DNA of 64,000 nt from a bacterium (GTDB lineage: Bacteria; Patescibacteriota; Minisyncoccia; Phycocordibacterales; Zambryskibacteraceae): NCBI GenBank assembly GCA_030649135.1, contig JAUSGI010000004.1, forward strand, positions 1 to 64,000. Direction: 5' to 3'. Below, piece after piece: positions 6,903 to 63,033 of the stretch. The notes under the pieces were generated by a model. It saw only the letters and a program-made list of their open reading frames with translations, was not told where the DNA came from and did no database searches. A program made the translations under genes and the position numbers. Each line of letters starts with the position of its first letter. The stretch's first letter is position 1.

Positions 6903-7161
6903 TTGAAATAATATAAAAGAAAGCCGCCCCCTCGTTACGAAACGAAAGTTTGGCTTTCGTCTCGCCCGAGTGGGGCGGTTATGGGCGAAGCATTGCGCTT
7001 CGCCCAGCTTTTTAACGTGGTTCACCCCACGGAGCTGTGGTCTCGTTCGCATGTTATTCAGGAATGGCTAGTTCCCTACTCCTACATGCGAATCCCCACT
7101 CACGTTTCACCTAACGGGTTTTATTGTCTAGGAGTTGTCCTTCTCCCTGAGAGTTACGAGC

Positions 7162-7563
7162 TCAGACTCGTCTAGCGGCAGCGTAGAACTTCTCTGTCTC
7201 TAGAACAGCTTGTGGCCTCTGCATTCTGCTCCAACAACCGTCGCAACCGCAGGTGGCAGCGTGCAGAATGTTGTTCACTAGATGCGGTGAACACTCGGCG
7301 AAGTAGCAGACAACTTCACATTCTTCCTGCTCTTCGTCCCAGCGGATGAATCCCGGTGGAATTTCTCGCCATCCCCGCTGCGCTTTCAGCAGTGACTCGA
7401 GACTGGCGCCTGCCTCTATCGCCGTGCGTAAGGCTTTGAGTGACAGCCGACTACGACGTTCCACCACGACATTAATGCAATGGCGATCGAAGAGGATAAG
7501 AGCGTTTCTCCTTGCGTCCGCGCACCACTTCCTCGAACGATTTTCCCTAAGTGGATTCGGCAT
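7162..7563 (-). CDS. GC-rich Cys-rich protein, HNH-like Zn-finger nuclease-like (tentative)
   Basis: Cys pairs (WCADARRN…DRHC; CEVVCYFAEC; CGCDGC) flank HLVNNILH (H-x3-N-x4-H), reminiscent of HNH. SD GGGGGTGAAAGG before ATG 7563. Much GC-richer than neighbours (by eye). Confidence 0.35.
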   Translation of the reverse strand: MPNPLRENRSRKWCADARRNALILFDRHCINVVVERRSRLSLKALRTAIEAGASLESLLKAQRGWREIPPGFIRWDEEQEECEVVCYFAECSPHLVNNILHAATCGCDGCWSRMQRPQAVLETEKFYAAARRV

Positions 7564-7898
7564 CCTTTCACCCCCTCTTATTCTCACTAGCCAAGTGAGA
7601 TTGATTTTAAAGAACAGAGCGAACTATATTCGCTCTTCTGAAAATCCAATTGACATTAGAATTTCGGAAGAGCGAGCGAACGGTGTTTTGTCCGTTCGCT
7701 CGTTGAGCTGTTTTTACGCGCAAGGAGGGGCCAAAAGGCTCGTGCCATAACCCCATCCAGAGGATCACCGACGTATCAGTGTCGTAGTGGGATTTTCACT
7801 TGCGCAACCCCGGGCAAGGGATACTTCGCCTTTCTGCCCGATCAATTAAGCGGGATCCAGATAACCACCCCCTTCAGCGTGATGGTTTGTGTTGCCAA

Positions 7899-11333: not shown

Positions 11334-11352
11334 ATTAGTGTCCAGCGCTTTG

Positions 11353-11423
11353 TGCCCCCAGCAGGAATCGAACCCACATCACCTGTTCCGAAGACAGGTA
11401 CTTTATCCGTTAAGCTATAGGGG
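11353..11423 (-). tRNA. tRNA-Arg (anticodon TCG)
   Basis: Minus-strand cloverleaf GCCCCTATAGCTTAACGGATAAAGTACCTGTCTTCGGAACAGG…GGTTCGATTCCTGCTGGGGGCA; anticodon loop CTTCGGA. Confidence 0.8.
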
Positions 11424-11440
11424 CCTACCTGCGCAGGCAG
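11422..11440. repeat. GC-rich palindromic motif, family A, copy 2 (abuts the 5' end of tRNA-Arg)
   Basis: gcctacctgcgcaggcagg. Its reverse complement matches 19 of 20 bases with the 44728 copy. Confidence 0.5.
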
Positions 11441-11505
11441 GCAACATCGATATCGTACCTCAAAACTCGATTTTTTTCCTTTAGTACGCTATTATCTTTT
11501 CACTC

Positions 11506-11576
11506 GCGGCTATGGTTTAGTGGTAGAACACGTCCTTGCCAAGGACGAGATTCGGGTTCGATTCCCGGTAGCCGCA
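11506..11576 (+). tRNA. tRNA-Gly (anticodon GCC)
   Basis: GCGGCTATGGTTTAGTGGTAGAACACGTCCTTGCCAAGGACG…GGTTCGATTCCCGGTAGCCGCA; anticodon loop TTGCCAA. Confidence 0.85.
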
Positions 11577-11577
11577 C

Positions 11578-11648
11578 CGGGCTGTAGTACAGCGGTAGTA
11601 TACACGCTTCGGGAGTGTGAGACCCGAGTTCGATTCTCGGCAGCCCGA
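11578..11648 (+). tRNA. tRNA-Pro (anticodon CGG)
   Basis: CGGGCTGTAGTACAGCGGTAGTATACACGCTTCGGGAGTGTG…CCGAGTTCGATTCTCGGCAGCCCGA. Perfect 7-bp acceptor with C1:G72 and A73, which are Pro identity elements; loop TTCGGGA. Confidence 0.8.
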
Positions 11649-11675
11649 TGCCAAGTTTTATTAAGCACATATAGA

Positions 11676-11746
11676 CGGGCCGTCGTATACCGGTAGTATT
11701 TGCGCTTTGGGAGCGTAAGGACTGGGTTCGATTCCCAGCGGCCCGA
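11676..11746 (+). tRNA. tRNA-Pro (anticodon TGG)
   Basis: CGGGCCGTCGTATACCGGTAGTATTTGCGCTTTGGGAGCGTA…CTGGGTTCGATTCCCAGCGGCCCGA; C1:G72; loop TTTGGGA. Confidence 0.8.
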
Positions 11747-11766
11747 TAAGATACAATTAAATATGC

Positions 11767-11837
11767 CGGGCTGTGGTATAACGGTATTACTCATGGCTGG
11801 GGGTCATGCAACCCGGGTTCAACTCCCGGCAGCCCGA
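11767..11837 (+). tRNA. tRNA-Pro (anticodon GGG)
   Basis: CGGGCTGTGGTATAACGGTATTACTCATGGCTGGGGGTCATG…CCGGGTTCAACTCCCGGCAGCCCGA; C1:G72; loop CTGGGGG. Confidence 0.8.
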
Positions 11838-11846
11838 AAGAATAAT

Positions 11847-11917
11847 GCGGGATTAGTTTAATGGTAGAACAATAGATTTCCAATCTGTTGGTGGGAGTTC
11901 GATTCCCCCATCCCGCA
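11847..11917 (+). tRNA. tRNA-Gly (anticodon TCC)
   Basis: GCGGGATTAGTTTAATGGTAGAACAATAGATTTCCAATCTGT…GGGAGTTCGATTCCCCCATCCCGCA; loop TTTCCAA. Confidence 0.85.
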
Positions 11918-11921
11918 CAAA

Positions 11922-20688: not shown

Positions 20689-21210
20689 ATGGGGTTAATT
20701 ATTATTTTCAAAAGACTCAACTATATTTTTCTAGTTGTATTGACTGCGCTTTTGGTTTTTTTAGCACTGACATTTTCTGCCAATATAGGTATTGTGGGCA
20801 GTGTTGTTTTCGCTGGTGCTCTTCCTGCCTCGACTAAAATAAACATTCTCTTGAATATCCCATACGGATATATTTCTGAATTTTCATCACAATCTCTCGT
20901 CGCAATATTATTTTCTTTGCTTTTCGGTGTTAACCTCGCTGGGTTCGTCTATTATGTGCGGCTCTACAGAGCAACTGCCATCTCTGCCGTTGCTGCGCTA
21001 GGTAGCGGAAGTATTATAAGTGCGATTGTTGGCGTTGGTTGTATTTCGTGTGGTTCGCTTGTCGCCGCCTTTCTCGCTTCGCTATTTGGCGCCTCAAGTC
21101 TGTCGATCATTCTTCCGTTTGGGGGTACTGAATTTAGTCTCGTCAGTATCCTGCTCCTGCTTATATCGATAATGCTCTTGAATCAGAAAATAAAACAAGC
21201 GTATCTATAA
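20689..21210 (+). CDS. Polytopic membrane protein with intramembrane CxxC (CISC)
   Basis: Four or five predicted TM helices; the only two Cys form CISC inside a helix. Adjacent to DsbA. Confidence 0.45.
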   Translation: MGLIIIFKRLNYIFLVVLTALLVFLALTFSANIGIVGSVVFAGALPASTKINILLNIPYGYISEFSSQSLVAILFSLLFGVNLAGFVYYVRLYRATAISAVAALGSGSIISAIVGVGCISCGSLVAAFLASLFGASSLSIILPFGGTEFSLVSILLLLISIMLLNQKIKQAYL

Positions 21211-21219
21211 AAAATAAGC

Positions 21220-21250
21220 GGGACGTGGAGGTTGTGACCCTCCACGTCCC
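21220..21250. terminator. Perfect 12-bp stem hairpin (gggacgtggagg-ttgtga-ccctccacgtccc), a bidirectional terminator candidate between convergent genes
   Basis: Seen directly; a second hairpin gcggttc-tgg-gaaccgc lies at 21254-21270. Confidence 0.6.
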
Positions 21251-21274
21251 GTTGCGGTTCTGGGAACCGCGAGA

Positions 21275-21835
21275 CTAACGAACCTTCTCGAGCGTACCGA
21301 CCCAGGAGAGGCCCGGGCCAGTGACCGTTGCGTGTAGTCGTCCGTCTTGCTTGATGGAGAGCAAGTAGACGTTACCTTTGGAGTCGGTAACGACTATCTT
21401 CTCACCATCAGCCCGTACCTTGGCCTCACGGCGGCCCGACCAGGTCCTGCCATAGTTCTGGTCACGTCCGCCGACATAGCGGCCGATACCACTAGACACC
21501 ATGGTGGTCGCCAGAGGCGAGATCCTCTCGAACGCGAGTACCTGATGGGCCATCAGGACGTTTGCCGATCCGCCACGAAATTCGCCGACCCAGACACCAG
21601 AGAGCCCGGCAACTTCCGTCGGGACACTAGGGTCCGGCGGGGTGATGTTGATGTCCGGGAGCACGGGCACATCCGGGACATGCTTCCGTATGACTTCCGT
21701 AAGCGATGTCGTCTCCATGCTGGGAGACGCAGCCTGCGCCACCTGGTTTCCGTCGGCCTGCTGGGCCGACGCCGGCACGTTGATGCTGGTGATGAAAAGA
21801 GCGATTACCACTGCGATCAGTGAAAAAGTCTTCAC
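21275..21835 (-). CDS. GC-rich secreted hypothetical protein
   Basis: GTG start at 21835, preceded by GGAGG with a 5-nt spacer; signal peptide KTFSLIAVVIALFITSINVPASA. The region is markedly GC-richer than its flanks (by eye). Confidence 0.5.
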   Translation of the reverse strand: MKTFSLIAVVIALFITSINVPASAQQADGNQVAQAASPSMETTSLTEVIRKHVPDVPVLPDINITPPDPSVPTEVAGLSGVWVGEFRGGSANVLMAHQVLAFERISPLATTMVSSGIGRYVGGRDQNYGRTWSGRREAKVRADGEKIVVTDSKGNVYLLSIKQDGRLHATVTGPGLSWVGTLEKVR

Positions 21836-21997
21836 GATGACCTCCTGTGTGTTTAGGGTGAGCTGCTTGATGGGGATTGTCTGTGCGTAGTATACCATAT
21901 ACTACCTACAAATACAACGACCTGGGTGCGTGCCCATAATATGGCCAATTAGCCTGACTTTTCAATTTTTGAATAAAGTAGTGAAAAAGCATATCAT

Positions 21998-22865: not shown

Positions 22866-24605
22866 GTGGTAAACACACTTTTGTCTAAGAAGAAAATTCT
22901 TCCCGTAGCTATACTTTTGGGCGGTTTGTTAATCGCTTTGGGTGTTTTTATATCGGCTAATTTTGCTTCAGCTCAATCTTATAATGTTTCGCAATGGACT
23001 GAAGAAACCGGGGCCGGGATCTCTACACCCGCCTGTAGCTCCGCGGCTCCTTCGGTAACCTGTGTAGGCAACAAGCCGAAGGTGACCCTCTCCTGGGCCT
23101 ATGATACTCGTATTCCAAGCAAGCATGGGGAATGCGTCAAGGCAGCATACTCTATTTGGTCACCGGGTATTGATGATACCTTAATAGAATGGGGTGATAA
23201 CAAAAATTGTACTGATGAAAAGAGTCTTGTTAATCTTGCGAACAATACACCCTACTCCTACAAAATTTATTGGGTAACGGTGACTGATATTGTTACCAGT
23301 GATGAGTTAGTGCGCTCATTCACCACACCGAATTGCACAGTGGATCCTCCGGCAACGCCAAACCTTAGTGTCGTCGCGAGCTGTTCTGCTGCCAACGTGC
23401 CGCAGGCGACGCTCTCATGGACTGTTTCTTCTGTAACGGGAATCAGTAATTACCACATTGAACGTTGCAGGGGAGTAAGTTGCACAGCATTTTTACAAAT
23501 TAACACCTCTACTACCTCTCCTTATACAAGCCCCGTCCTCGCGACGAGTACTACCTATCGTTATCGAGTTCGCTCCCACAGTCACACCAATACATTTTTT
23601 AGTCCGTACTCAAACGTTGTGACCGTGACAATGCCGGCAAGCTGTGTCCTTTCCCCTGACCTTACTGCAGGAGCCACTACAGCAATGCCATCACCCAGTA
23701 TTCCTGGGGAGAGCGTCTCATTTTCATCAAGTGTTTCCAACATTGGCACCGATGTTGCTTTAAACTTCCACAACATCTTCCAAGTCTCCAACAGCAGTAT
23801 GACCTCGACAATTGTAAGGGTGGACACGGGAATAGTTCCTTCACTTGCCGTAGGTTCCAGCACCAATATCTCCGGTTCTCACGCCTTTGTTTCTTCCGGC
23901 ACCTATAATGTTCGCGCTTGTGCCAATATGTTGACCTCTGGGAATATGAATATTGACATCGATGGCGAATCAGACGTGACCAACAATTGTGGTTTATGGA
24001 CGATAGTGGAAGTTTCATCGTTCGACTACAGTCTGTCCAATTCCGGCACATCGAATGTGACCAAGGCGAGTGGTAATGCTTTCACTACTAATACTATTAC
24101 CAAAACGTTACTTTCTGTGTCGACACAATCAGTAACTCTTGACGTGTCAGGTGAGCCATCTGGTGTAACACATTCCATTTCCAACCAGGGGTGCTCTCCC
24201 ACATGCACTTCGGTCATCACTTTCACCGTTCCCCCGAGTACTCCCAATGGTACTTACCTCATCAGGGTTACCGGTTCTCCTCTCAACAAACAGACGAGCT
24301 TCAACTTGGTTGTCTCGGGTAACCCCATGAGCGTCTCATGCTCATCTTCTCCGAAGACGGCGTTAGTTGGCGAACTTGTCACTTGGACAGCGAGTGTCTC
24401 CGGAGGCACTCCGCCACTATCATATTCGTGGAGCGGCACTAATATCCCAACTAGTCCGGCTCCCACTACCAACCCATTCAGTATTCGCTACAGTACCATT
24501 GGACCGAAAACTGCCACCATTACGGTTACTGACACGAATTCCGTACAAGCCTCATGCCCGTCTACCATTCAAATTAACTTTAACCCCCTGTTTGAGGAAT
24601 TTTAA
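22866..24605 (+). CDS. Large secreted surface protein with CARDB-like and PKD-like domains (paralog 1)
   Basis: Signal or TM N-terminus; PDLTAG…SNIGT (CARDB-like); C-terminal LVTWTASVSGGTPPLSYSWSGTN (PKD-like). Thr/Ser-rich. Confidence 0.7.
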   Translation: MVNTLLSKKKILPVAILLGGLLIALGVFISANFASAQSYNVSQWTEETGAGISTPACSSAAPSVTCVGNKPKVTLSWAYDTRIPSKHGECVKAAYSIWSPGIDDTLIEWGDNKNCTDEKSLVNLANNTPYSYKIYWVTVTDIVTSDELVRSFTTPNCTVDPPATPNLSVVASCSAANVPQATLSWTVSSVTGISNYHIERCRGVSCTAFLQINTSTTSPYTSPVLATSTTYRYRVRSHSHTNTFFSPYSNVVTVTMPASCVLSPDLTAGATTAMPSPSIPGESVSFSSSVSNIGTDVALNFHNIFQVSNSSMTSTIVRVDTGIVPSLAVGSSTNISGSHAFVSSGTYNVRACANMLTSGNMNIDIDGESDVTNNCGLWTIVEVSSFDYSLSNSGTSNVTKASGNAFTTNTITKTLLSVSTQSVTLDVSGEPSGVTHSISNQGCSPTCTSVITFTVPPSTPNGTYLIRVTGSPLNKQTSFNLVVSGNPMSVSCSSSPKTALVGELVTWTASVSGGTPPLSYSWSGTNIPTSPAPTTNPFSIRYSTIGPKTATITVTDTNSVQASCPSTIQINFNPLFEEF

Positions 24606-24683: not shown

Positions 24684-27020
24684 ATGACCTTCAAGCACGC
24701 GTCAATCCAACCTAATGTCTTACTTGCACTAATTTTTGCAGTAAGTTTTTTATTTGTATCTACCCCCACTGCCATCGCAGTTGATACCTGTAATGTCTCA
24801 CCACAAACTGCTGTTATCGGTGAATTAGTCACCTGGTCAGTCAGTGGTGTGCGGGGCCCTTTTTTGAGCGCAACTTACGAGTGGTCCGGGACTGATGGCC
24901 TTTCTGGCTCAACTCGGCTTGTACAGAAGTCGTACTCAAGCGCTGGAACGAAAAATGGATATGTGGAGTCCAGGACTCGGGGCATAGGGGAGGAAAGTTG
25001 CAGTATGACTGTGCTACCCGCTCCACTGCTTGTTGTTTCCTGTAGCGTTTCTCCGACGTCTGCCAGTCTTAATCAACCTGTCACGTGGTCTGCGACAGCT
25101 TCGGGAGGAGATTTGTTGGCGACGTCTCAGACTAGAAACTTTGGTAATCAGCCGTTGACAACCACGGTCTTTGACTTTAGTGGCCTTGTCGGCAGTGCGT
25201 CCGTGGATTCTTTTTATGTGTCATATGACTGGCAGTGGGAAGACGGGGGAAATGATGGTGTTGCTAAGGGAAACAGGAAAGTAAATGTTGGTCAGACTGG
25301 TCTTATCTTCTCGGCCTTGAAGGATGATGACAGTCACGGTGTGCCTGGCCCGAATTGTCTGGGCTATACTGGAAACTCTGACGCCTATGATTACTGCATG
25401 TCGATTCACAGTTCAAGCTGGAATAACGCTGCGAAGAAGCTCACCGTGCAATGGGAGGGTGTCACGGATAGAGATATCAACACTGTCACCAGATTTAATG
25501 TCACTGCCAAAGCCCCAGCCGAACATATTTTCTCGTGGTCAGGAACCAACGGCCTCTCCGGAACAACTGCCTCAGTTTCAAAATCATATTCCACTACTGG
25601 GGTAAAAACTGGGAACGTGACCGTCACATCTGGAAGTCAGTCGGTCACAGGAGTCTGTGATAATTCGGTGTCTGTGCTAGGCCCTCTTCCCGACCTTACC
25701 GCCGGCCCCGTTTTCCCTACTTCAGCGACAGCAGGTACCGCAAAGATATTTACCTCAACGATCAGTAATAAGGGTTCTCTAAGTACTGGTATCTCGTTTA
25801 ATAATTTCATGCAAGTGGCGACTGCTCCCAATGGTAGTGGGATTGTCAGTGATACTTCTTTCGTCGGTATGGCCGCTCTGGCCGCCGGTAGTGCCAATAC
25901 ATTTAGTAAATCGCATACTTTTGTTTCAGCCGGTATCTACTCACTTCGTGTGTGCGCTGACAAGAGTTCAGCTACAAACGCCGGTGTGATTAATGAGGGG
26001 ACAAACGAAGGGAACAACTGTGGCGCGTGGACAACAGTGACCGTATCGAATCTTCCCGACCTTACCGCCGGCCCCGTTTCTCCTAACTCGGCAACAGTAA
26101 GTATCGCAACCACTCTGTCCGCACCGGTCTCAAATATCGGAACGGGTTCGACCAGAGTGGGCTTTACCAGTCTCTTCCAGAAAGCCACGAGTAACACTGG
26201 TGCAAATGCTGCAGATATAGGTACTTTCACCAGGTCAAGTGCGTTTCTCGCAGGCGGTTCAATGACGGCTTCTCTTTCCTACACCTTCCCAAGTGCTGAT
26301 GGGGGCACGACCCGTTATATTCGTGTGTGTGCTGACAAGAGCTCTGCTACAAACGTTGGTGTGATTACGGAGTCGAACGAAAACAATAACTGTGGTGATT
26401 GGACTGATGTATCTGTGCTGGTGCCGCCATCGGCGTTCAACTACAATCTTTCCAATTCCGGCAACTCCAATGTGACCAAGGCGAGTGGTAATGCCTTTAC
26501 CACCAATACTATTACCAAAACGTTACTTTCCGTGTCGACACAATCAGTAACTCTTGACGTGTCAGGTGAGCCATCTGGTGTAACACATTCCATTTCCAAC
26601 CAGGGGTGCTCCCCCAGGTGTACCTCGGTTATCACTTTCACCGTTCCCCCGAGTACTCCCAATGGTACTTACCTCATCAGGGTTACCGGTTCTCCTCTCA
26701 ATAAACAGACGAGCTTCAACTTAGTTGTCTCGGGTAACCCCATGAGTGTCTCATGCTCATCTTCTCCTAGAACAGCATTAGTTGGCGAGCTTGTCACTTG
26801 GACGGCGAGTGTGACTGGAGGTACCCCACCTCTCGCATATTTATGGAGCGGCACCAACATCCCAACCAGTCCGGCTCCCACCACCAATCCGTTTAGTATC
26901 CGCTATAGCACTATCGGACCGAAAACTGCCACCATTACGGTTACTGACACGAATTCCGTACGAGCCTCATGCCCGTCTACCATTCAAATTAACTTTAACC
27001 CCCTGTTTGAGGAATTTTAG
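24684..27020 (+). CDS. Large secreted surface protein with PKD-like and tandem CARDB-like domains (paralog 2)
   Basis: N-terminal PKD-like motif (VTWSVSGVRGPFLSATYEWSGTDG). Two tandem CARDB-like modules (LPDLTAGPV…VCADKSSATN[AV]GVI…NNCG[AD]WT), then the shared C-terminal module. Confidence 0.7.
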   Translation: MTFKHASIQPNVLLALIFAVSFLFVSTPTAIAVDTCNVSPQTAVIGELVTWSVSGVRGPFLSATYEWSGTDGLSGSTRLVQKSYSSAGTKNGYVESRTRGIGEESCSMTVLPAPLLVVSCSVSPTSASLNQPVTWSATASGGDLLATSQTRNFGNQPLTTTVFDFSGLVGSASVDSFYVSYDWQWEDGGNDGVAKGNRKVNVGQTGLIFSALKDDDSHGVPGPNCLGYTGNSDAYDYCMSIHSSSWNNAAKKLTVQWEGVTDRDINTVTRFNVTAKAPAEHIFSWSGTNGLSGTTASVSKSYSTTGVKTGNVTVTSGSQSVTGVCDNSVSVLGPLPDLTAGPVFPTSATAGTAKIFTSTISNKGSLSTGISFNNFMQVATAPNGSGIVSDTSFVGMAALAAGSANTFSKSHTFVSAGIYSLRVCADKSSATNAGVINEGTNEGNNCGAWTTVTVSNLPDLTAGPVSPNSATVSIATTLSAPVSNIGTGSTRVGFTSLFQKATSNTGANAADIGTFTRSSAFLAGGSMTASLSYTFPSADGGTTRYIRVCADKSSATNVGVITESNENNNCGDWTDVSVLVPPSAFNYNLSNSGNSNVTKASGNAFTTNTITKTLLSVSTQSVTLDVSGEPSGVTHSISNQGCSPRCTSVITFTVPPSTPNGTYLIRVTGSPLNKQTSFNLVVSGNPMSVSCSSSPRTALVGELVTWTASVTGGTPPLAYLWSGTNIPTSPAPTTNPFSIRYSTIGPKTATITVTDTNSVRASCPSTIQINFNPLFEEF

Positions 27021-43043: not shown

Positions 43044-44504
43044 CTAGAGTCCGAGTTTCTGCTTCCATCGTTCCGCAACAGCCCTCGCTTTCTTGGGGGC
43101 GATGCCGATATAGAGTGATGGATTCGAGATGACGCTTCGCTGGCGTGGCGTCATCTTCTCGAGGTAGTCCGCCAACTCCGCATCACCCATGACCACCTCC
43201 TCGAGTGGTCGCGATTCGCGTCTAGCTTGGCGCGCCAGGATTCGCACCTTCTCGTGGGCATGAGAATGTCCCAGCGCGGAGAGAATGAGCTGTAACGGCT
43301 CGGCGGCAGTCCCTCCCTTCGTCATGTTGAGATTTCTCTGAAGGTTTTCATGGTTCACCGTGAGTTTATTCATCACTCTCGTCAGGCGTTTAGCCATGGA
43401 AAAGACGTAGGCCACAACCTCGCCATAAGTTCGGGCCGAGGCGGAGTTCGTGAGGTCGCGTTGGTGTTCGCTGATCTGATCAAGGAACACAGTAATGATG
43501 CGCGGCATGACGACCTTCCAGAGACTCTTGGCGTTCTCAAAGTTGATGGGGTTCATCTTCTGCGGCATAGTCGAGGAGCCGACCTGGTCCTCTTCGACTG
43601 GTTCTCCTACCTCAGCGATTTCTGTGCGCTGGAGATGGCGCATATCGTCGGCGAGATTGGCCAGTATGCCGGCAGTAATGGTGACTTCACAGAGAAGACG
43701 CGTCATCGCTTCGGGCGGTACAATCTGGGTTGAGTATTCGGCCGGGATGAGTCCCATCTCGGCAAGTACTTCAGCTTCGAAGACCTCTGGGTCGTCGAAG
43801 AAGAGCGAAGAAGCGTTGTATGCTCCGACTGCTCCCGAGAACTTCCCGGGGAGTTTATCAGCACGAAGCTTCAGCTCTTCGATTGAACCGCCGATGCGAC
43901 TGACGTACTCGGCGATTGCGAAGCCGAACGAGGTCGGGACCGCATGCTGACCATGGGTTCTTCCGGCTTGGGGTGTCTCGGCTTCGTTGTCGGCGAGTGT
44001 GATAAGGACTTTTTCCAACTCGATGAGCGCTGGGATGACCACAATTTCGACAACGTGCTTGTAGCGTGCAGCGTTGGCCGATTCGATGATATCGAATGAT
44101 GTTGCCGATAGATGGACAAACGGTTTCGCGCGATCGCTCAGTCTCGTCTGGATGCGATTCACGAGAGCTCGGATGTCATGCCCGATTCGACCTTCCTCAT
44201 CGTACACTTCTTCGGTCACGACTTCGCCACAGGCCGCCACGATTTCACGCAAAGTGTCTTCGGAGCAAACTCCCCGGCGCTCTAATACGGTTGCAAGTGC
44301 TCGCTCCACACGGAGCTTGTAACGGGTGAACCCGTTCTCGGAGAGATACTTCGCTACTTCGGCATCCCAGTATCGATAATCGATCGGTGAAAGGCTGTCG
44401 AACACATCACGCATTCTCATATCATCCTCCTGTAAAGGTGCGATTCTCGAAACAAAAACTTCGTGTTCCTCGCTAAACCTATCAGTTTCCACCCATCTTT
44501 TCAA
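43044..44504 (-). CDS. purB: Adenylosuccinate lyase (class II fumarate-lyase family); GC-rich gene
   Basis: SPIDYRY…; GRTHGQHAVPTSFG; family signature GSSTMPQKMNP. The real start may be the internal Met near 44420. GC is clearly higher than flanking genes (by eye). Confidence 0.75.
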   Translation of the reverse strand: MKRWVETDRFSEEHEVFVSRIAPLQEDDMRMRDVFDSLSPIDYRYWDAEVAKYLSENGFTRYKLRVERALATVLERRGVCSEDTLREIVAACGEVVTEEVYDEEGRIGHDIRALVNRIQTRLSDRAKPFVHLSATSFDIIESANAARYKHVVEIVVIPALIELEKVLITLADNEAETPQAGRTHGQHAVPTSFGFAIAEYVSRIGGSIEELKLRADKLPGKFSGAVGAYNASSLFFDDPEVFEAEVLAEMGLIPAEYSTQIVPPEAMTRLLCEVTITAGILANLADDMRHLQRTEIAEVGEPVEEDQVGSSTMPQKMNPINFENAKSLWKVVMPRIITVFLDQISEHQRDLTNSASARTYGEVVAYVFSMAKRLTRVMNKLTVNHENLQRNLNMTKGGTAAEPLQLILSALGHSHAHEKVRILARQARRESRPLEEVVMGDAELADYLEKMTPRQRSVISNPSLYIGIAPKKARAVAERWKQKLGL

Positions 44505-50976: not shown

Positions 50977-51070
50977 CTTTTAATACGGAAAATTTGACAT
51001 TGTGATTAGTTTGTGACAGAGTGAAAGTAGACGTACGGCCCTGCGGGCCAAATTCAAGGAGGACACTATC

Positions 51071-51337
51071 ATGTTGCGTTGGGGTGCTATGCTCTTCATC
51101 GGCGTGCTGATCTTTCTGTGCGGGGTGTTTGTGTCAGACAGGTGGGTGGTCGTCGGTAAGGCAGAGGCCATATCATCCGGCCGTCCACACTGTCAGGCGT
51201 ACATGGACCACGCCGTTCGGGCGGTCCAGGAAAGTGAGCATCAGTATGGAGCGCCGAACTACGCGAAAGCAGTAGCATCGACGGCCTGGAGTGCCATCTA
51301 CCGTAACTGCATGGGGGGGGCCCTACTAGTCCGGTAA
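51071..51337 (+). CDS. GC-rich small membrane protein (cassette between fusA and tuf)
   Basis: SD CAAGGAGG before the ATG; TM helix MLFIGVLIFLCGVFV; a terminator follows. GC is much higher than in fusA or tuf (by eye). Confidence 0.45.
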   Translation: MLRWGAMLFIGVLIFLCGVFVSDRWVVVGKAEAISSGRPHCQAYMDHAVRAVQESEHQYGAPNYAKAVASTAWSAIYRNCMGGALLVR

Positions 51338-51375
51338 GGGACTTCCAATGCGCTAATCTTTTTTCATGTTCGCCG

Positions 51376-51409
51376 CCGGTCTGCTTACCCAGACCGGCTT
51401 TATTATTTC
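51376..51409 (+). terminator. Intrinsic terminator (ccggtctg-cttaccc-agaccgg plus ctttattatttc)
   Basis: Stem plus T-tract after the 51071 ORF. Confidence 0.65.
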
Positions 51410-51442
51410 TTACTTTGAAGATTGCACATTCAGAATTTTCGG

Positions 51443-51471
51443 TTGACGAATTTTATATTAAGTCTTATAAT
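51443..51471 (+). promoter_or_regulatory. Consensus sigma70-type promoter TTGACG-17-TATAAT for the 51522 ORF
   Basis: TTGACGaattttatattaagtctTATAAT. Confidence 0.6.
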
Positions 51472-51521
51472 ATAGGAAGGAACGAACACGAGTTAACCCT
51501 CTATCCATAAAGGGGGAAGAG

Positions 51522-51803
51522 ATGAAAAAGGTTATCGTCCTCTTACTGCTTCTCGGCACCGATTACTGGATTGACCAAGACAACCGAATCATCTTCGGCA
51601 GGACGCCGAAGATCGTGAACGAGATTTGCTTCATGAGGGGAGGGGCGTTTTTCGGAAAAAACGGCAGAAGGCTCGTCTGGGCCGACGGCTGTCATGACCC
51701 GTGGGACGATGTAATGATTCTCCCGCTCGAGGCCCGGAGCCCCGAGCACTACATTCACAGGCACGAACTCAAGCACCGTCTCGACGGTGCTTGGCATGAC
51801 TGA
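51522..51803 (+). CDS. GC-rich small secreted protein (second cassette between fusA and tuf)
   Basis: SD AAAGGGGGAAG before the ATG; signal peptide MKKVIVLLLLLG; a terminator follows. Confidence 0.45.
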   Translation: MKKVIVLLLLLGTDYWIDQDNRIIFGRTPKIVNEICFMRGGAFFGKNGRRLVWADGCHDPWDDVMILPLEARSPEHYIHRHELKHRLDGAWHD

Positions 51804-51820
51804 CAATGAGGGAGCTGGAC

Positions 51821-51850
51821 CCCCGGCACGCACGCGTGCCGGGGTTTTCG
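51821..51850 (+). terminator. Intrinsic terminator (ccccggcacgc…gcgtgccgggg plus ttttcg)
   Basis: GC stem plus a short T-tract after the 51522 ORF. Confidence 0.55.
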
Positions 51851-51991
51851 CTGGATTGACTATTTCTGCCCTTTTGTATACCATAGCCCTTACGCGTTAA
51901 CGTTTGTTGGTACTTTGATATTTTCTTCATAGACCATATAGCGGTTTAGTGCGTTAAAACATTAATATCTATTCAATAATAATTTACTAAT

Positions 51992-54705: not shown

Positions 54706-54985
54706 TTTAAAGCCGAATAATGTTCTCTTGCGCCCTCGTATTACCGAGAAGGCCGCTTTGGGAGCCGACAAGTCCAATGTCTATGTTTTTGAGGTGACAA
54801 CGGACGCCACCAAAAAGTCCATCAGCGCTTCCGTTCGCGATGCTTACGGAGTGACGCCCAAACAGGTGCATGTTGCCGCCATTCCTTCCAAACGAGTTTT
54901 TGTCCGGGGCAAAAGAGGGGTAAAGGGTGGAGGCAAGAAAGCGTATGTCTATCTGAAGAAGGGGGATAAAATCGAACTAATATAA
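54692..54985 (+). CDS. rplW: Ribosomal protein L23
   Basis: …LLRPRITEKA…NVYVFEV… L23 pattern. Confidence 0.9.
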   Translation: MANLNLKPNNVLLRPRITEKAALGADKSNVYVFEVTTDATKKSISASVRDAYGVTPKQVHVAAIPSKRVFVRGKRGVKGGGKKAYVYLKKGDKIELI

Positions 54986-55824
54986 TGAAAAAGTACCGAC
55001 CAACAACAGATTCCCGTCGCCATATGTCTGGCATAGACTTCCGCAAGATTCTTACTTCAGATAAACCTGAAAAGTCTCTGACTAGTGGCTTCAGGCGTGG
55101 TACCGGTCGGAATAATCGTGGTCGTATTACCACTCGGCATAAAGGCGGGGGTCATAAACGTCTTTTTCGGGAGGTTGATTTTTCCTACGATAAGTATGAC
55201 GTACCCTTTACCATAAAGACCATCGAATATGATCCCAATCGTTCCGGTTTTATCGGGCTCGCGGTCTACCGAGACGGGGAGAAGAGATATGTGCTTTTGC
55301 ACAATAGCGCGCGAGTCGGGCAAACTTTTGTGGTTTCCGAGAATGCTCCACAAGTGCCTGGTAATCGTTTGCCTCTCGGCAATATCTCTGTCGGCACTTT
55401 TGTTTATAACGTTGAACTTAAACACAAGGGTGGCGCGAAAATTGCCCGCTCTGGAGGTGATTATGTAGAAATATTGGCTAAGGAGGGGGGCTTTGTTGAT
55501 TTGAAAATGCCTTCAAGCGAGGTGCGTAAAGTGCCTATTAACGCCTGGGCCTCTATCGGGGAAGTTTCTAATAATGAAAATCGTTTGGTAACCATCGGCA
55601 AGGCCGGTCGTTCACGTTGGCTTGGTATCCGCCCACACGTCCGCGGTACCGCTATGAATCCGGTAGACCATCCGCACGGAGGTGGAGAAGGCCGTTCCGG
55701 CCGAGGTCGCAGGCGTGCTATTTCTTACTACGGTAAACCGACTGGCAAGGGTCAGAAATCTCGCCGAACCAAAAAATATTCAAACAAGTTTATGGTCAGT
55801 CGCCGAAAAGTAGGGAAGAGGTAG
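54985..55824 (+). CDS. rplB: Ribosomal protein L2
   Basis: …GRNNRGRITTRHKGGGHKR…GNISVGTFVYNVEL…HGGGEGR…. Confidence 0.95.
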   Translation: MKKYRPTTDSRRHMSGIDFRKILTSDKPEKSLTSGFRRGTGRNNRGRITTRHKGGGHKRLFREVDFSYDKYDVPFTIKTIEYDPNRSGFIGLAVYRDGEKRYVLLHNSARVGQTFVVSENAPQVPGNRLPLGNISVGTFVYNVELKHKGGAKIARSGGDYVEILAKEGGFVDLKMPSSEVRKVPINAWASIGEVSNNENRLVTIGKAGRSRWLGIRPHVRGTAMNPVDHPHGGGEGRSGRGRRRAISYYGKPTGKGQKSRRTKKYSNKFMVSRRKVGKR

Positions 55825-55830
55825 GTAATG

Positions 55831-55859
55831 TTGACGCCAGCTTCTCGTTAGTGTATAAT
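55831..55859 (+). promoter_or_regulatory. Consensus sigma70-type promoter TTGACG-17-TATAAT for the 55897 ORF
   Basis: TTGACGccagcttctcgttagtgTATAAT immediately after the rplB stop. Confidence 0.6.
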
Positions 55860-55896
55860 GTAGGTAGGAGTACCAAGAATTACCAGGAGGGGGGAC

Positions 55897-56322
55897 ATGA
55901 CAGTTGCGGGAACGTTGTTTAACAAGTTGTTGAGGGTGTGCGGCAAGCGGGTGGTCGACTCCGCTAGCAACAGGAAGGAGTTCGTCGACAACGGCACCTT
56001 GTTTCCGGTGCCCAACATCGGCCAGGAGATGTACCTATTCCCGGTCACTCGCCGTCTCACCGGTGATGAGGCAGAGGACGCCTATGCATCTTTTGGCCTC
56101 GAAGCTGCCGGGTGGGAGGAGCTCGCTCTGGCCAATGACGCCAACCCTGCCATGGCGTCAGAGAGACCCAACGCCACTCAATGGCGGGATCGGGGGCGGT
56201 GGTGCTACATCACCTTCTCCGAGCCTGGGGAGAACTATCTCCTTCGGGCGGGGAAGGTCGATAGGTGGGACCCCGGGTGGTGGCTCGCAGGTCGTCCCAT
56301 CAAGTGGGACGAGTACCGGTAA
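55897..56322 (+). CDS. GC-rich hypothetical protein (Trp-rich; cassette between rplB and rplJ)
   Basis: SD AGGAGGGGGG before the ATG; a strong terminator follows. No recognized domain. Confidence 0.45.
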   Translation: MTVAGTLFNKLLRVCGKRVVDSASNRKEFVDNGTLFPVPNIGQEMYLFPVTRRLTGDEAEDAYASFGLEAAGWEELALANDANPAMASERPNATQWRDRGRWCYITFSEPGENYLLRAGKVDRWDPGWWLAGRPIKWDEYR

Positions 56323-56332
56323 TTCGGGGTCT

Positions 56333-56370
56333 GGGCGTTCGGACAGTCGTCCGAACGCCCTTTTCGTTTG
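56333..56370 (+). terminator. Strong intrinsic terminator (gggcgttcggac-agtc-gtccgaacgccc plus ttttcgtttg)
   Basis: Perfect 12-bp stem plus T-tract. Confidence 0.8.
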
Positions 56371-56479
56371 TATACTTGCATTAAATTTTTATTCCTGTAA
56401 GGTATTTCTCCATAAGGTCAAAGACAGTAGGCATCCATAAGCCCTACCGAGACTAAACCACTCTGGCCTTATTAAATTA

Positions 56480-56968
56480 ATGGCCATTTCGAAAGCCAAA
56501 AAGGGAGAAGTGCTCACGAAGCTTAAGGCGGCCTTCAAAAGTGCCAAGTCTTTGGTGTTCATTAACTTTAAGGGCTTGAATGTGGCCAATGCCACTCAAA
56601 TGCGCCGTGCTCTCAAAAGTGAAGGTATTTCTTACACGGTTGCCAAAAAGACTCTAACCAACTTAGCGCTTGAGGGAGAGAAGTTTCAGGGCACAGCACC
56701 AGTGCTCGAAGGTGAGTTAGCTCTTGCGTGGGGAGAAGACTTGGTGGCTCCGGCTCGCGGAGTTTATGGTTTCCAGAAAAAGTTTCCGGAGAGTCTCAAG
56801 ATTATGGGTGGAGTCTTCGAAGGTCGTTTTATGACGGCAGTCGAAATGGAGGAGATTGCCCAGATTCCTACGCTCGAGGTGCTTCGCGGCAAGTTCGTCA
56901 ATATTATTAATTCCCCGATACAGCGCTTTGTGATTGGGCTTAATGAAATTAGTAAGATTAAGAGTTAA
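56480..56968 (+). CDS. rplJ: Ribosomal protein L10
   Basis: MAISKAKKGEVLTKLKAAFKSAKSLVFINFKGLNVANATQMRRALKSEG… L10 pattern. Confidence 0.9.
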   Translation: MAISKAKKGEVLTKLKAAFKSAKSLVFINFKGLNVANATQMRRALKSEGISYTVAKKTLTNLALEGEKFQGTAPVLEGELALAWGEDLVAPARGVYGFQKKFPESLKIMGGVFEGRFMTAVEMEEIAQIPTLEVLRGKFVNIINSPIQRFVIGLNEISKIKS

Positions 56969-56972
56969 AAAC

Positions 56973-57386
56973 ATGGAAGATACACAAAATACAAATACCG
57001 AAATAGTTAAGGAAGTTCCTACAAAGTTCAAAAAGATTGTTGAAGAAGTTGAGACCATGTCGGTACTTGAACTCAATGAACTGGTGAAAGTTTTCGAAAA
57101 CAAGTTCGGAGTTTCTGCTACAGCTGTAGCCGCGCCCGCCTCCGCGCAAGGCTCCGGCGAGGCAATAGAAGAGAAATTGACAGCAAGCGTGGAGCTCACT
57201 AATAGCGGTGCCAACAAAATCGCCATCATCAAGGTGGTCAAAGAAGTGCTCGGCCTCGGTCTCAAAGAAGCTAAGGACCTCGTCGATGCTGCTCCCTCGA
57301 TGCTTAAAGCAGACATGAAGAAAGAAGAGGCAGAAGCGCTCAAAAAGCAGATAGAAGACGCTGGTGGTAAAGTGACGCTCAAGTAG
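56973..57386 (+). CDS. rplL: Ribosomal protein L7/L12
   Basis: …MSVLELNELVKVFENKFGVSA…AKDLVDAAP…EAEALKKQIEDAGGKVTLK; start at the internal Met 56973. Confidence 0.9.
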   Translation: MEDTQNTNTEIVKEVPTKFKKIVEEVETMSVLELNELVKVFENKFGVSATAVAAPASAQGSGEAIEEKLTASVELTNSGANKIAIIKVVKEVLGLGLKEAKDLVDAAPSMLKADMKKEEAEALKKQIEDAGGKVTLK

Positions 57387-57398
57387 TAGAATGGGCGC

Positions 57399-57956
57399 AT
57401 GAAATCCGTTTCCCACATCTTCGGCGGAGAGGCCAAAGTAAAGATTATGCGCCTGTTTATCTTTAACCCAGGTCTCACTTTTACTTCCGCTGAAGTGGCC
57501 CACCGTGCCAAAGAGAGACCTCATACGGCCCGCAAGGAACTTAGAATTCTCGCCAAGGCGGGTCTCATCAAGCGACGCACGAAGGGCTTTGCTCTCAACT
57601 CTTCCTACCTGTATCTTCCCGCGATTGAAAATTTTCTGATAGATGCCACGCCCATCACGGAGAAAGAGATAATCCAGAAAGTTTCTCGCGCCGGCAACAT
57701 CAGACTTGTCTTAATTTCCGGTGTCTTTCTACATGACCGTGATTCTCGTGTGGACATCCTCGTCGTGGGGGACCATCTCAAAGGAGCCAAACTCTTGTCG
57801 GCTATATCATCGATTGAAGCTCTCTTGGGCAAGGAGTTGCGTTATGCCGCTTTCGAGACCGCCGATTTCCGATATCGTCTGGGTATCTACGACAAGCTTA
57901 TTAGAGATATTCTGGACTACCAGCACGAGAAGATTCTTAATAAATTGGGTATTTAA
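57399..57956 (+). CDS. Hypothetical protein with N-terminal wHTH-like region (putative regulator)
   Basis: MRLFIFNPGLTFTSAEVAHRAKERPHTARKELRILAKAGLIKRR is wHTH-like; the C-terminal domain is unrecognized. Confidence 0.4.
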   Translation: MKSVSHIFGGEAKVKIMRLFIFNPGLTFTSAEVAHRAKERPHTARKELRILAKAGLIKRRTKGFALNSSYLYLPAIENFLIDATPITEKEIIQKVSRAGNIRLVLISGVFLHDRDSRVDILVVGDHLKGAKLLSAISSIEALLGKELRYAAFETADFRYRLGIYDKLIRDILDYQHEKILNKLGI

Positions 57957-57998
57957 CCCCGCTTCACCCCGCCTTGGCGGGGCAAGCGGCGGGGCAGG
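57957..57998 (+). repeat. GC-rich palindromic motif, family B, copy 3 (ccccgcttcaccccgccttggcggggcaagcggcggggcagg)
   Basis: Directly after the stop codon at 57956. Confidence 0.5.
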
Positions 57999-58116
57999 AT
58001 TATCCACACCCCAATAAACCTCGTATTTTATAGGTGTATAATGAATCGCGTACCCCTTTTAGAGTGGTCACAATTAGAAGCTAAGTGCATTTGCACAGAC
58101 ATCGAGCTAAGAATAT

Positions 58117-58815
58117 ATGTTATTAAACACATGGGGAGAAGTGCTAACCCTTTCCTTCCAGAATCTTTGGGTAGGAGTGGTTAACTTTGTCCCGAACCTT
58201 GTTATTGCTATCGTCATCCTTATCCTAGGATGGTTAGTTGGCGCGCTTATCGGCCGAGCAATTTGGCAAGTGTTCAAGTCTCTGAAAGTTGATGACGCTC
58301 TTCGCCAGGCGGGATTCGACTCTTTTGTGCGTCGTGGAGGTATTGACCTTGATTCCGGCGCGTTTGTTGGTGGTTTGGTGAAGTGGTTTGTGATAGTGAT
58401 GTTTTTAGTGGCAGCTCTGGATGTTTTAGGCCTTTCACAAGTCAACTTCTTCCTCCAAGACGTAGTACTTGGCTATTTGCCTCGTGTACTCGCTGCGGCT
58501 TTGGTTCTCTTGGTGGCTGGCGTTATCGGTGATGTCACCGGACGTGTGGTTGTCACAGCAGCTCGGACGGCAGGTATTGATTCAGCACATTTTGTGGGTG
58601 CTGTGGCCAAGTGGGCCATCTGGATTTTCGCCATTCTCGTAGCTCTTTCCCAACTGGGTATTGCTGCGGCGTTTAGTCAGACTCTCTTCACAGGCATTGT
58701 CATCGCGGTCTCTCTCGCCCTCGGTCTCTCCTTCGGTCTCGGCGGACAGGAAGCGGCATCTCGCTTCCTCGAAAAGCTTCGCGGAGAAATGAGTGGTAAA
58801 AACCACAACGGTTAA
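58117..58815 (+). CDS. Polytopic membrane protein with conserved TM-helix repeats
   Basis: Repeated hydrophobic segments with a recurring …VV.FLVAALDVLGL… pattern. Confidence 0.5.
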   Translation: MLLNTWGEVLTLSFQNLWVGVVNFVPNLVIAIVILILGWLVGALIGRAIWQVFKSLKVDDALRQAGFDSFVRRGGIDLDSGAFVGGLVKWFVIVMFLVAALDVLGLSQVNFFLQDVVLGYLPRVLAAALVLLVAGVIGDVTGRVVVTAARTAGIDSAHFVGAVAKWAIWIFAILVALSQLGIAAAFSQTLFTGIVIAVSLALGLSFGLGGQEAASRFLEKLRGEMSGKNHNG

Positions 58816-58861
58816 CCTCGAGGTATTACTTAGCTAGATAATACCCGGATAATCTGTAGGG

Positions 58862-58890
58862 AAGAGCCCGTTTTCGGGCTCTTTTCTGTT
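58862..58890 (+). terminator. Intrinsic terminator (aagagcccg-tttt-cgggctctt plus ttctgtt)
   Basis: Stem plus T-tract after the membrane-protein gene. Confidence 0.7.
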
Positions 58891-58893
58891 CTA

Positions 58894-58922
58894 TTGACTT
58901 TTAAACCTCATTGTGATATGAT
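58894..58922 (+). promoter_or_regulatory. Sigma70-type promoter TTGACT-17-TATGAT for the 58997 ORF
   Basis: TTGACTtttaaacctcattgtgaTATGAT. Confidence 0.55.
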
Positions 58923-58996
58923 TAGGGCAGGATGGGCATTGGCCCATAAGACGATCTTCGTTTACTACCTTCAAGGCTACACCTTAGGAGAGTGTC

Positions 58997-59506
58997 ATGA
59001 GCGTAGTGGAGAAAGCCGAACTCTCGCCAATCCTGGGTAGCGTACCGGTCGTGATGTTTTTCTTCAACGTCACCGACAAGAGGCTCGTGCCTTGGTGGGC
59101 GAAGACCGTGTCGGGCCTCGAGCAGAAGCCGGCCACCGAAGGTCAGCCCTCCGGTGTCGAGTTGATCAGGGGCAAGCACGTGAATCTCTATTCCGTTCTC
59201 GACGAGATCGGAGAGCAGGGATTCATTCCGGTCCGGCTCCTCGTCATCGAGAGGGGTCAAGGTAGGGTTCGTATGGCCCTGGTGTGCGTTCACTCGGATC
59301 ACCTGAAAGAGGGCGATCGACGGATGCCCCGGAGAGAGGAAGCTGATGTACGGGGGCTTCTCAAGAAGCTCTGGGACGTTCGGGTTCATCGTAACCCGGG
59401 CGAGCACGGAGGGAACTTCATCATCGGGTGTGCCTACCCGGCGATGGGGAATTCCAGGGGCAAGCTGCTCGTCGCCGACGGGCAGTTCCGGTTGGAGACG
59501 AAGTAG
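58997..59506 (+). CDS. GC-rich hypothetical protein (cassette upstream of rpsS)
   Basis: SD TAGGAGAG before the ATG; a terminator follows. No recognized domain. Confidence 0.45.
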   Translation: MSVVEKAELSPILGSVPVVMFFFNVTDKRLVPWWAKTVSGLEQKPATEGQPSGVELIRGKHVNLYSVLDEIGEQGFIPVRLLVIERGQGRVRMALVCVHSDHLKEGDRRMPRREEADVRGLLKKLWDVRVHRNPGEHGGNFIIGCAYPAMGNSRGKLLVADGQFRLETK

Positions 59507-59517
59507 CTGTGAGGTCT

Positions 59518-59560
59518 GGACCGGGGGCGCAACGCGCGCTCCCGGTCCTTTACTTTTTAC
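59518..59560 (+). terminator. Intrinsic terminator (ggaccggg…cccggtcc plus tttactttttac)
   Basis: GC stem plus T-tract. Confidence 0.65.
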
Positions 59561-59613
59561 GTTGATTTATATACTATATCCCGCATAGCTCGCTCGAGCT
59601 TTTTCATTTAATA

Positions 59614-59955
59614 ATGACCAGGTCATCTAAAAAAGGTCCATACGTCGACCCTCGAGTACTCAAGAAGTTAGAGGGCAAAAGCCCCACGACCGCTGGGGTT
59701 ATAAAGACGTGGTCGAGGGCCTGCCAAATTGCTCCGGAGATGGTTGGTTTTACCTTCGGGGTTCATAATGGTAAGGACCACGTAGCGGTGTTTGTCAGCG
59801 AAGACATGGTCGGACATCGCCTTGGCGAGTTTTCGCTAACGCGCAAATTTACAAGACACGGCGGTAGAATGCAGAAGGACCTTGAACAGAAGCAAAAGGA
59901 GTCCGAAATTGCTGCCGCTAAGGCAGTCAAGGGTGCGGCGGAATCAAAGAAGTAG
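59614..59955 (+). CDS. rpsS: Ribosomal protein S19 (with C-terminal extension)
   Basis: …[13 protein letters not shown]…[44 protein letters not shown]…. Confidence 0.9.
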
Positions 59956-62953: not shown

Positions 62954-62991
62954 AAGTTATCTACATTATATAAAATAGAAAAATCCCCGCG

Positions 62992-63019: not shown

Positions 63020-63033
63020 ATTGTGACGGATAG

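Follow-up and report, generated by a model that had tools for sequence, protein, structure and literature searches.

A GC-rich single-gene unit encoding a predicted exported calycin-like barrel, probably an old horizontal acquisition in a Zambryskibacteria-like lineage

A minus-strand gene at positions 21275-21835 of contig JAUSGI010000004.1 (assembly GCA_030649135.1), labelled gene X here, stands apart in composition from the other genes in the first 64,000 nucleotides (nt) of that contig, the stretch that was analysed and that we call the window. We consider it probable that gene X is an old, fixed, moron-like horizontal acquisition from a higher-GC source, taken up by an ancestor of one Zambryskibacteria-like subclade (Parcubacteria, candidate phyla radiation (CPR)) and vertically inherited since as a self-contained single-gene transcription unit. 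The sequence data show the gene itself, its composition, the conservation of its promoter and terminator, its synteny, the empty sites of more distant relatives, and the family and fold class of the protein; transcription and termination, export, ligand binding and the direction and source of the transfer are inferred. Homologous loci from related assemblies are given L numbers (L002, L007, L012 and so on), and gene X of the 64-kb stretch is referred to as the window copy.

Gene X has a GC content of 0.60, with 0.62, 0.48 and 0.71 at the first, second and third codon positions, and it lies in a block in which GC measured over 200 nt stays above 0.55 without break from 21204 to 21899 and peaks at 0.66. 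Neighbouring genes have GC of 0.40-0.47 and third-position GC (GC3) of 0.30-0.42 (0.38-0.42 in the two flanking genes), and relative to the 58 other genes of the window gene X lies at z=3.4 for GC and z=3.3 for GC3, the bulk having a GC3 of 0.477 +/- 0.069 and a maximum of 0.62. An initial annotation, made from the sequence, had described a GC-rich block here and named a composition like that of the neighbours as the finding that would refute it; the computed GC3 and its z-score leave no such likeness. Amino-acid content does not explain the GC richness of gene X, because GC at four-fold degenerate sites is 0.61-0.82 in gene X versus 0.26-0.56 in its neighbours. Orthologues of gene X have GC of 0.56-0.61 and GC3 of 0.75-0.78 where measured, in hosts of 0.44-0.47 GC and beside flanking genes of 0.38-0.49.

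The gene order around this locus is PQQ-repeat protein, AMMECR1, two small or unknown proteins, (rhodanese), DsbA-like protein, CxxC membrane protein, gene X and TPR protein, with type IV pilus genes also among the neighbours. A position between a membrane protein and a TPR protein had been claimed earlier and is confirmed, a 173-amino-acid (aa) hydrophobic CxxC protein being encoded on one side and the TPR protein on the other. The synteny comparison that had been proposed at the same time found gene X in this slot in at least six related genomes (window, L002, L007 (=L099, L102), L008-L010, L100 and L101), convergent with the membrane-protein gene at each of these loci and present in all closer relatives. 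In the more distant L106-L108 the membrane-protein and TPR genes are 105 bp apart and nothing lies between them; in L012/L013 the two genes overlap, and gene X is found about 2 kb off, between other genes of the same neighbourhood; in L105 and L109/L110 a different gene, of host composition, follows the membrane-protein gene. Since the flanking genes are adjacent or overlapping in these more distant relatives, gene X is an insertion relative to an older arrangement. Synonymous divergence (dS) between lineages is 0.94-1.4 for gene X and 0.75-1.7 for its neighbours, and from this equality it follows that gene X is as old as the split of these lineages; the clade copies also cluster together in a neighbour-joining tree. 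The protein is 41-47% identical between lineages and its neighbours 62-78%, and dN/dS values of 0.24-0.49 for gene X and 0.11-0.24 for neighbours indicate purifying but relaxed or partly diversifying selection.

Reading the sequence upstream of gene X gives a complete promoter on the minus strand. The TATACT that had been described as a -10-like element on the 5' side (21894-21889) proves to be the -10 of a full promoter, TTGTAT-17 nt-TATACT with an extended -10 TG (TGG-TATACT, 21889-21897), kept in six loci. The -35 hexamer (21912-21917, TTGTAT) reads TTGCAT or TTGTAT, 17 nt upstream of the -10, in all six of the aligned orthologous loci, and at the -10 element ATGGTATACT is identical in the window, L002, L007 and L100, with TGCTTTACT in L101 and TGCTACACT in L008. 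Transcription would start near 21882, as deduced from the position of the -10, giving a leader of about 46 nt (21836-21882) that holds a box, AGCAGCTCACC (21867-21857), and a GGAGG Shine-Dalgarno sequence at 21845-21841, 5 nt before the GTG start; both are kept in the six loci. Promoter, leader box and Shine-Dalgarno sequence can thus be aligned across six loci while the neighbouring intergenic DNA cannot, which argues that the gene X unit is, by sequence criteria, transcriptionally autonomous. In four relatives the gap between the gene X promoter and the TPR gene holds other cargo (L008 4405-6529, L010 1429-3553, L009 4020-5680 and L101 2577-5000), which includes toxin-antitoxin modules (AbiEii and nucleotidyltransferase/HepT), ~2.4 kb of DNA of unknown nature and an integrase of the rve type, and the gap appears from these sequences to be an insertion hot spot.

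On the 3' side, two hairpins lie between the stop codon and the convergent membrane-protein gene. The smaller, beginning 4 nt after the stop, is a perfect 7-bp stem (21254-21260 / 21264-21270) with a 3-nt loop; the larger belongs to an intrinsic terminator (21205-21251) with a perfect 13-bp stem (CGGGACGTGGAGG / CCTCCACGTCCCG, 21219-21231 / 21239-21251) and a 7-nt loop, followed by CTTATTTTTTATAG. An earlier description of a perfect 12-bp hairpin plus a second one was right that both exist and one base pair short for the larger. Its minus-strand continuation, the T-tract CTTATTTTTT, makes the large stem terminator-like, as it was also classed by a terminator scan, and this tract overlaps the stop codon (21208-21210) of the membrane-protein gene. 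The 73-nt 3' region folds as RNA at -39.7 kcal/mol (z=-8.85), and none of 200 shuffles was as stable. A layout of small hairpin, GC-rich 12-15 bp stem and T-rich tail is found in five of the six orthologues compared, with differing stem sequences, the exception being the copy in the shifted slot of L012, which has a weaker, AT-rich hairpin. A hairpin is kept at the small-hairpin position in L002, L101 and L008 with base changes on both sides, and when the six same-slot 3' regions are aligned (L012 excluded) compensatory changes occur in 10 of 21 predicted consensus pairs. The large hairpin is therefore best described as a predicted intrinsic terminator and not a cassette boundary, and the small one is probably a stabilising stem ahead of it. 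The hairpin has no second copy in the 64-kb window at up to two mismatches, and a repeated hairpin or miniature transposon was ruled out on this ground.

A segment of ~135 nt at this end of the gene (window 21140-21275 versus L002 745-880), covering the gene X stop, both hairpins and the last 22 codons of the membrane-protein gene, is ~97% identical between the two loci, while the rest of that membrane-protein gene is only 48% identical at four-fold sites. The contrast suggests a recent exchange or an unrecognised constraint.

These features recall the morons of phages (Hendrix), extra genes that lie between genes adjacent in relatives, carry a promoter and a terminator of their own and differ in GC from their surroundings (PMC3594210). 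Gene X likewise lies between neighbours that are adjacent elsewhere (L106-L108, L012), behind a promoter of its own (TTGyAT-17-TAtACT with TG), ahead of a terminator of its own (a 13-bp GC-rich stem and T-tract, compensated in relatives), and with a GC3 far from the 0.38-0.42 of the flanking genes. Unlike a moron it resides not in a phage or prophage but on a bacterial chromosome among housekeeping and envelope genes (rhodanese, DsbA-like, AMMECR1, TPR and type IV pilus genes), and, instead of being specific to a strain, it is old and has become fixed in a clade. A phage origin was looked for and rejected: the product matches no PHROG, and structural matches in BFVD reach a template-modelling (TM) score of at most 0.4, none of them meaningful.

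The persistence of the foreign composition bears on this history in both directions. Synonymous changes polarised by outgroups run from GC to AT in 38 cases and from AT to GC in 17 (few, overlapping comparisons, and parsimony is biased), and the excess points the way in which amelioration would take a foreign GC-rich gene, toward the composition of its host. A study of transfer in Patescibacteria describes old transfers as evading detection because composition ameliorates (PMC12455944). Gene X resembles the horizontally transferred genes and genomic islands of that study in being foreign to a streamlined CPR genome and, like most of them, not recent, and differs in that its compositional signal persists after a dS of ~1. 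Several results weigh against an old acquisition followed by vertical descent, or against parts of that reading. A rough HKY-type hand calculation estimates a decay factor of ~0.47 when each lineage is given ~0.5 synonymous substitutions per site and the host an equilibrium GC3 of 0.42-0.48; the present GC3 of 0.71-0.78 would then require an ancestral GC3 above 1. Either decay has been slowed (by codon or mRNA selection, by biased conversion or by copies arriving now and then from elsewhere) or so simple a model does not suffice. The family homologues did not reveal a donor lineage, and no mobility gene or target-site duplication adjoins gene X in the window. The product has no significant sequence match to a characterised calycin, its best PDB profile match being a fatty-acid-binding protein at E=0.2, so that ligand binding is argued from the fold class only.

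Some of these observations would be accommodated more readily if gene X were native to the lineage and owed the retention of its GC-rich codons to selection or to some process peculiar to the gene: the structure or stability of its mRNA, its rate of translation, or GC-biased gene conversion, as in a surface-protein gene that recombines frequently. The high GC3 in all orthologues despite a dS of ~1 and the shortfall of the neutral-decay estimate would both fit, as would the fast evolution of the protein relative to its neighbours and the L012 copy, whose GC3 is still 0.62 versus about 0.46 where its neighbours are saturated at four-fold sites (identity 0.22-0.31). We nevertheless regard a native origin as unlikely, given the slots without gene X in more distant relatives, the occurrence of the family in high-GC contigs beside recombinases, the roughly 2:1 ratio of GC-to-AT changes, which places the composition away from equilibrium, and a codon signature shared with clearly variable cargo genes elsewhere in the window. 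The effects reported for biased gene conversion on bacterial GC3 amount to only a few percent, which also counts against a native origin. A wider proposal, which we hold to be rather doubtful, is that Zambryskibacteria-like genomes carry autonomous, fast-evolving accessory genes, namely gene X and the translation-cluster units described below, with a GC richness that is actively maintained and not fading. Such maintenance could come from a circulating GC-rich gene pool recombining into promoter/terminator gaps between conserved genes, or from a selective or conversion bias specific to this class of gene. By either route, composition would be the sign of a class defined by function or mechanism, beyond any recent arrival from outside. 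The retention of foreign composition after ~1 synonymous substitution per site, with the variable and often GC-rich cargo of conserved translation-gene clusters, is possibly worth more than gene X itself.

An old and undisturbed insertion would also be the wrong picture if the slot had been refilled repeatedly, diverged homologues from an external GC-rich pool replacing the resident by recombination in the conserved flanks. Such replacement would leave what is seen between the window and L002, where the 3' segment described above is nearly identical and the gene X proteins are only 46% identical, and where the 3' half of gene X is visibly (by eye) more divergent in DNA than the 5' half; the L012 and L002 copies, moreover, are 58% identical, as close as in-clade copies are to each other. 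That gene X and its neighbours have equal dS, that the clade copies cluster together, that the promoter and leader are collinear with the 5' half and have diverged to a similar degree, and that a search of 5.8 billion proteins gave no single clade copy a close GC-rich relative together make repeated refilling highly improbable to us, and we retain a single old acquisition as the better account.

The initial annotation had gone further and made gene X one of a genome-wide family of cassettes delimited by hairpins. The window does contain five other GC-rich units (51071-51337, 51522-51803, 55897-56322, 58997-59506 and 63034-63630), each with a near-consensus sigma-70-like promoter, a strong Shine-Dalgarno sequence and a GC-rich hairpin followed by a T-tract; two occupy the interval between the genes for EF-G and EF-Tu, one the L2|L10 interval, one the gap from a membrane-protein gene to S19, and one, of Endonuclease VII type, the L5|S14 interval. 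Codon analysis, which had been suggested as a check, gives gene X a codon-usage correlation of 0.79 with these units pooled and 0.50 with bulk genes (control genes 0.36 and 0.76). There is no protein similarity among the units or between them and gene X, and their hairpins share no sequence with each other or with that of gene X. What survives of the family, within these 64 kb, is thus architecture, composition and codon usage, with no shared protein, hairpin or boundary sequence: going by these comparisons, gene X shares a style and a composition with the units and not a sequence family. The hairpins do not delimit cassettes and look instead like ordinary intrinsic terminators, oriented with their genes.

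The four translation-cluster slots of the window (50977-51991, 55825-56479, 58816-59613 and 62954-63795) are, in 23 Zambryskibacteria-like relatives (L015-L036 and L044), either empty (23-190 bp) or filled with 0.3-2.8 kb of different cargo with a GC3 of 0.30-0.80, which argues that in this lineage conserved ribosomal-protein operons are hot spots for insertion. In the closest relative a homologue (45% identical) exists for the L2|L10 unit alone. Gene X is fixed at one locus and co-diverges with its neighbours; the translation-cluster units vary between relatives.

Such variability raises the question of a mobile cassette system, integron-like or of homing type, in which hairpins would be the sites of recombination or recognition and units would pass from one intergenic slot to another throughout the genome. 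In its favour, each of the six GC-rich units of the window, gene X included, has a strong hairpin at its end, of the nine hairpin-plus-T sites with a perfect stem in the 64 kb these units account for five, the four slots above are empty or variably filled in relatives, one unit encodes an Endonuclease VII / HNH-type protein, gene X occupies a different slot in L012, and the gap upstream of gene X is filled by toxin-antitoxin/Abi modules and an integrase in relatives. The single small gene followed by a palindrome is also reminiscent of an integron cassette, as are neighbouring slots whose content differs among relatives. Integron cassettes, however, are normally promoterless and lie in an array beside intI, with attC core sites RYYYAAC...GTTRRRY and extrahelical bases. 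Gene X is a single unit with its own promoter, no recombinase is found among the genes within ~7 kb of it, and its stem is perfect, without core sites, and leads into a T-tract. In every unit the T-tract follows the hairpin in the reading sense of that unit's gene, for which reason each hairpin is taken to be a terminator, and the hairpin sequences are mutually unrelated and unique. The cargo proteins are unrelated as well, and gene X has kept its position and co-diverged with its neighbours over a dS of ~1. Direct repeats flanking the gene X block were not found, only short repeats at chance level, which also led us to discard a target-site duplication, and no pair of template and variable repeats near gene X would make it the target of a diversity-generating retroelement. 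A cassette system is, in our estimation, very improbable indeed, and we return to gene X as a moron-like acquisition in describing its product.

The coding sequence runs from GTG (21835-21833) to TAG (21277-21275), 187 codons including the stop, so that of the earlier claim of a 187-aa product the gene is real and the protein is 186 aa; the minus strand, the GTG start and the GGAGG were all read correctly. The public annotation of a metagenome-assembled genome (MAG) at NCBI, Q7R69_00585, has instead 207 aa and begins 21 codons upstream. Its in-frame ATG (21898-21896) lies between the -35 and -10 of the gene X promoter, and every orthologue starts at the GTG position, with an ATG there in place of the GTG; for these reasons the 186-aa model is preferred, and the public model is probably too long by 21 codons. 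An assembly artefact was ruled out, as the arrangement recurs in independent NCBI, Logan, JGI and ENA assemblies. Antisense or dual coding was likewise dismissed: the plus-strand open reading frame 21347-21823 is not conserved, the stop-free antisense stretches being 161 and 177 codons in the window and L002 and 111 and 64 codons in L007/L008 and L012. Nor is there a structured or known RNA at gene X, the only Rfam matches at gathering threshold in the window being six tRNA genes at 11.3-11.9 kb.

As had been noted earlier, the protein begins with a predicted signal peptide. Read from the sequence, the N-terminus, MKTFSLIAVVIALFITSINVPASA|QQ (residues 1-24, 21764-21835), shows the n-region, h-region and AxA cleavage motif of a Sec-type signal; cleavage is predicted at ASA|QQ, and the signal is conserved in orthologues, with model confidence there (predicted local distance difference test, pLDDT) of 55-59. 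An AlphaFold2 model from a 29-sequence alignment has a mean pLDDT of 88, and for its domain (about residues 60-186, 21278-21658) mostly 94 or more per 10-residue block, with one block at 89. It contains two short helices (residues 45-52 and 73-76) followed by eight strands, without a lipocalin-type C-terminal helix, and the top natural matches of Foldseek in the PDB are fatty-acid- and bile-acid-binding proteins, nitrobindins and lipocalins, besides de novo designed barrels (E 5e-4 to 7e-3). G80 and W82 are invariant on the first strand, and a K or R is found on the last strand in nearly all of the 29 members; G-x-W on the first strand with a basic residue on the last, against which it packs in calycins, is the calycin signature of the lipocalin literature (Flower). 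The product is thus confidently predicted, on the model, to be an eight-stranded calycin-type barrel, within the eight- to ten-stranded antiparallel +1 topology of the superfamily. It resembles Blc lipocalins, fatty-acid-binding proteins and nitrobindins in its modelled eight-stranded up-and-down barrel, G-x-W and basic last-strand residue, and its family resembles them in secretion or lipoprotein signals; it differs in having no significant Pfam calycin or PDB match and, in the model, short helices before the barrel and no C-terminal helix after it.

Gene X has no Pfam, NCBIfam, PHROG or PADLOC match, and none of the 29 family members has a Pfam match. A word-indexed search returned only gene X itself and one homologue. 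The homology search proposed for the product, run exhaustively with HMMER, returned 55 representative clusters at E<=1e-3 (11 at <=1e-10), of which four are spurious repeat proteins, so that by sequence similarity gene X is part of an unnamed family of ~50 clusters. Members are typically ~150 aa with a signal peptide or lipoprotein box, and some consist of two or three tandem domain copies. One homologue with the full architecture (P0057, 37% identical, GC3 0.86) lies between two serine-recombinase genes in 59-63% GC contigs; another (P0058) adjoins an IS110 transposase and three tyrosine recombinases; a third (P0005) is on a short contig of ~63-65% GC, and two further weak matches are on 64-67% GC contigs. 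Such a distribution agrees with a family carried about on mobile DNA and common among bacteria of higher GC. As kinds, both parts of the finding are familiar, a foreign gene in a CPR genome and an uncharacterised family of known fold; gene X is, on our reading, a clean and datable case of a foreign gene fixed in a streamlined CPR genome with its own expression signals, and with it comes an unnamed family of putatively secreted calycin-like barrels, modelled with confidence.

We propose that gene X would be transcribed from its own extended -10 promoter, that the pre-protein would be translated from GTG behind a strong Shine-Dalgarno sequence and exported via its Sec signal peptide, and that the mature 160-aa barrel, lipocalin- or fatty-acid-binding-protein-like, would most likely bind something outside the cell, be it a surface molecule or a small hydrophobic ligand. 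The two 3' hairpins would end and stabilise the transcript and keep it from running antisense into the convergent operon of rhodanese, DsbA-like protein and CxxC membrane protein. Because it has no cysteine, the product is not an obvious substrate of the adjacent DsbA-like system. From the model its function can be inferred only as that of an exported ligand- or surface-binding barrel. Since these organisms must take lipids and building blocks from hosts, such a barrel is a reasonable candidate for the host interface; that it captures lipids or nutrients from hosts is speculative.

Other features of the window deserve brief mention. The 173-aa hydrophobic protein next to gene X (20689-21210) matches no family in Pfam or NCBIfam, contains GCISCG as a conserved CxxC motif and adjoins the DsbA-like and rhodanese genes; it could be a membrane partner of the DsbA-like oxidoreductase. 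Two Thr/Ser-rich predicted surface proteins (22866-24605, 579 aa; 24684-27020, 778 aa) share a near-identical C-terminal region of ~200 aa ending in FNPLFEEF, which points to a recent duplication or gene conversion. The adenylosuccinate-lyase gene (43044-44504, minus strand, Pfam Lyase_1 and ASL_C), with GC 0.55 and GC3 0.62, is the only large housekeeping-type gene with raised GC3 and, by its composition, may also be foreign. The six clustered tRNA genes (11352-11918) are Arg-TCG on the minus strand and then Gly-GCC, Pro-CGG, Pro-TGG, Pro-GGG and Gly-TCC; as all three Pro isoacceptors for CCN codons are present, GC-ending Pro codons can be decoded.

Of the translation-cluster units, that between L5 and S14 (63034-63630, minus strand) encodes a 198-aa CxxC-rich protein that matches the Pfam family Endonuclease VII (PF02945) at E=5e-8 as well as PHROGs for the endonuclease VII of phages, and the L5|S14 gap is only 23-24 bp in L015, L026, L044 and L018; a free-standing homing-type nuclease gene would explain insertion beside a highly conserved gene. 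The 58997-59506 unit apparently sits inside the S19 promoter (58880-58925 and 59540-59580), such that the -10 of the unit (TATGAT) now lies behind the resident -35 (TTGACT), while after the unit's terminator TTTACT-17-TACTAT re-creates an S19 promoter; relatives with an empty slot have an undivided promoter. L2 and S19 are normally adjacent genes. In the window (54985-59955) L10, L7/L12, a 185-aa unknown protein and a mechanosensitive-channel-type membrane protein (58117-58815) lie between them, an arrangement also seen in relatives. A conserved membrane protein of the translation cluster is 77-95% identical to proteins from MAGs of Candidatus Zambryskibacteria and other Parcubacteria, which assigns the window to a CPR bacterium of this group. 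Finally, a patch of 0.54-0.58 GC at 6980-7710, with hairpin-plus-T sites at 6982-7006, 7616-7636 and 7673-7702 and a minus-strand open reading frame of 141 aa without family match, may be a further unit of the same style.

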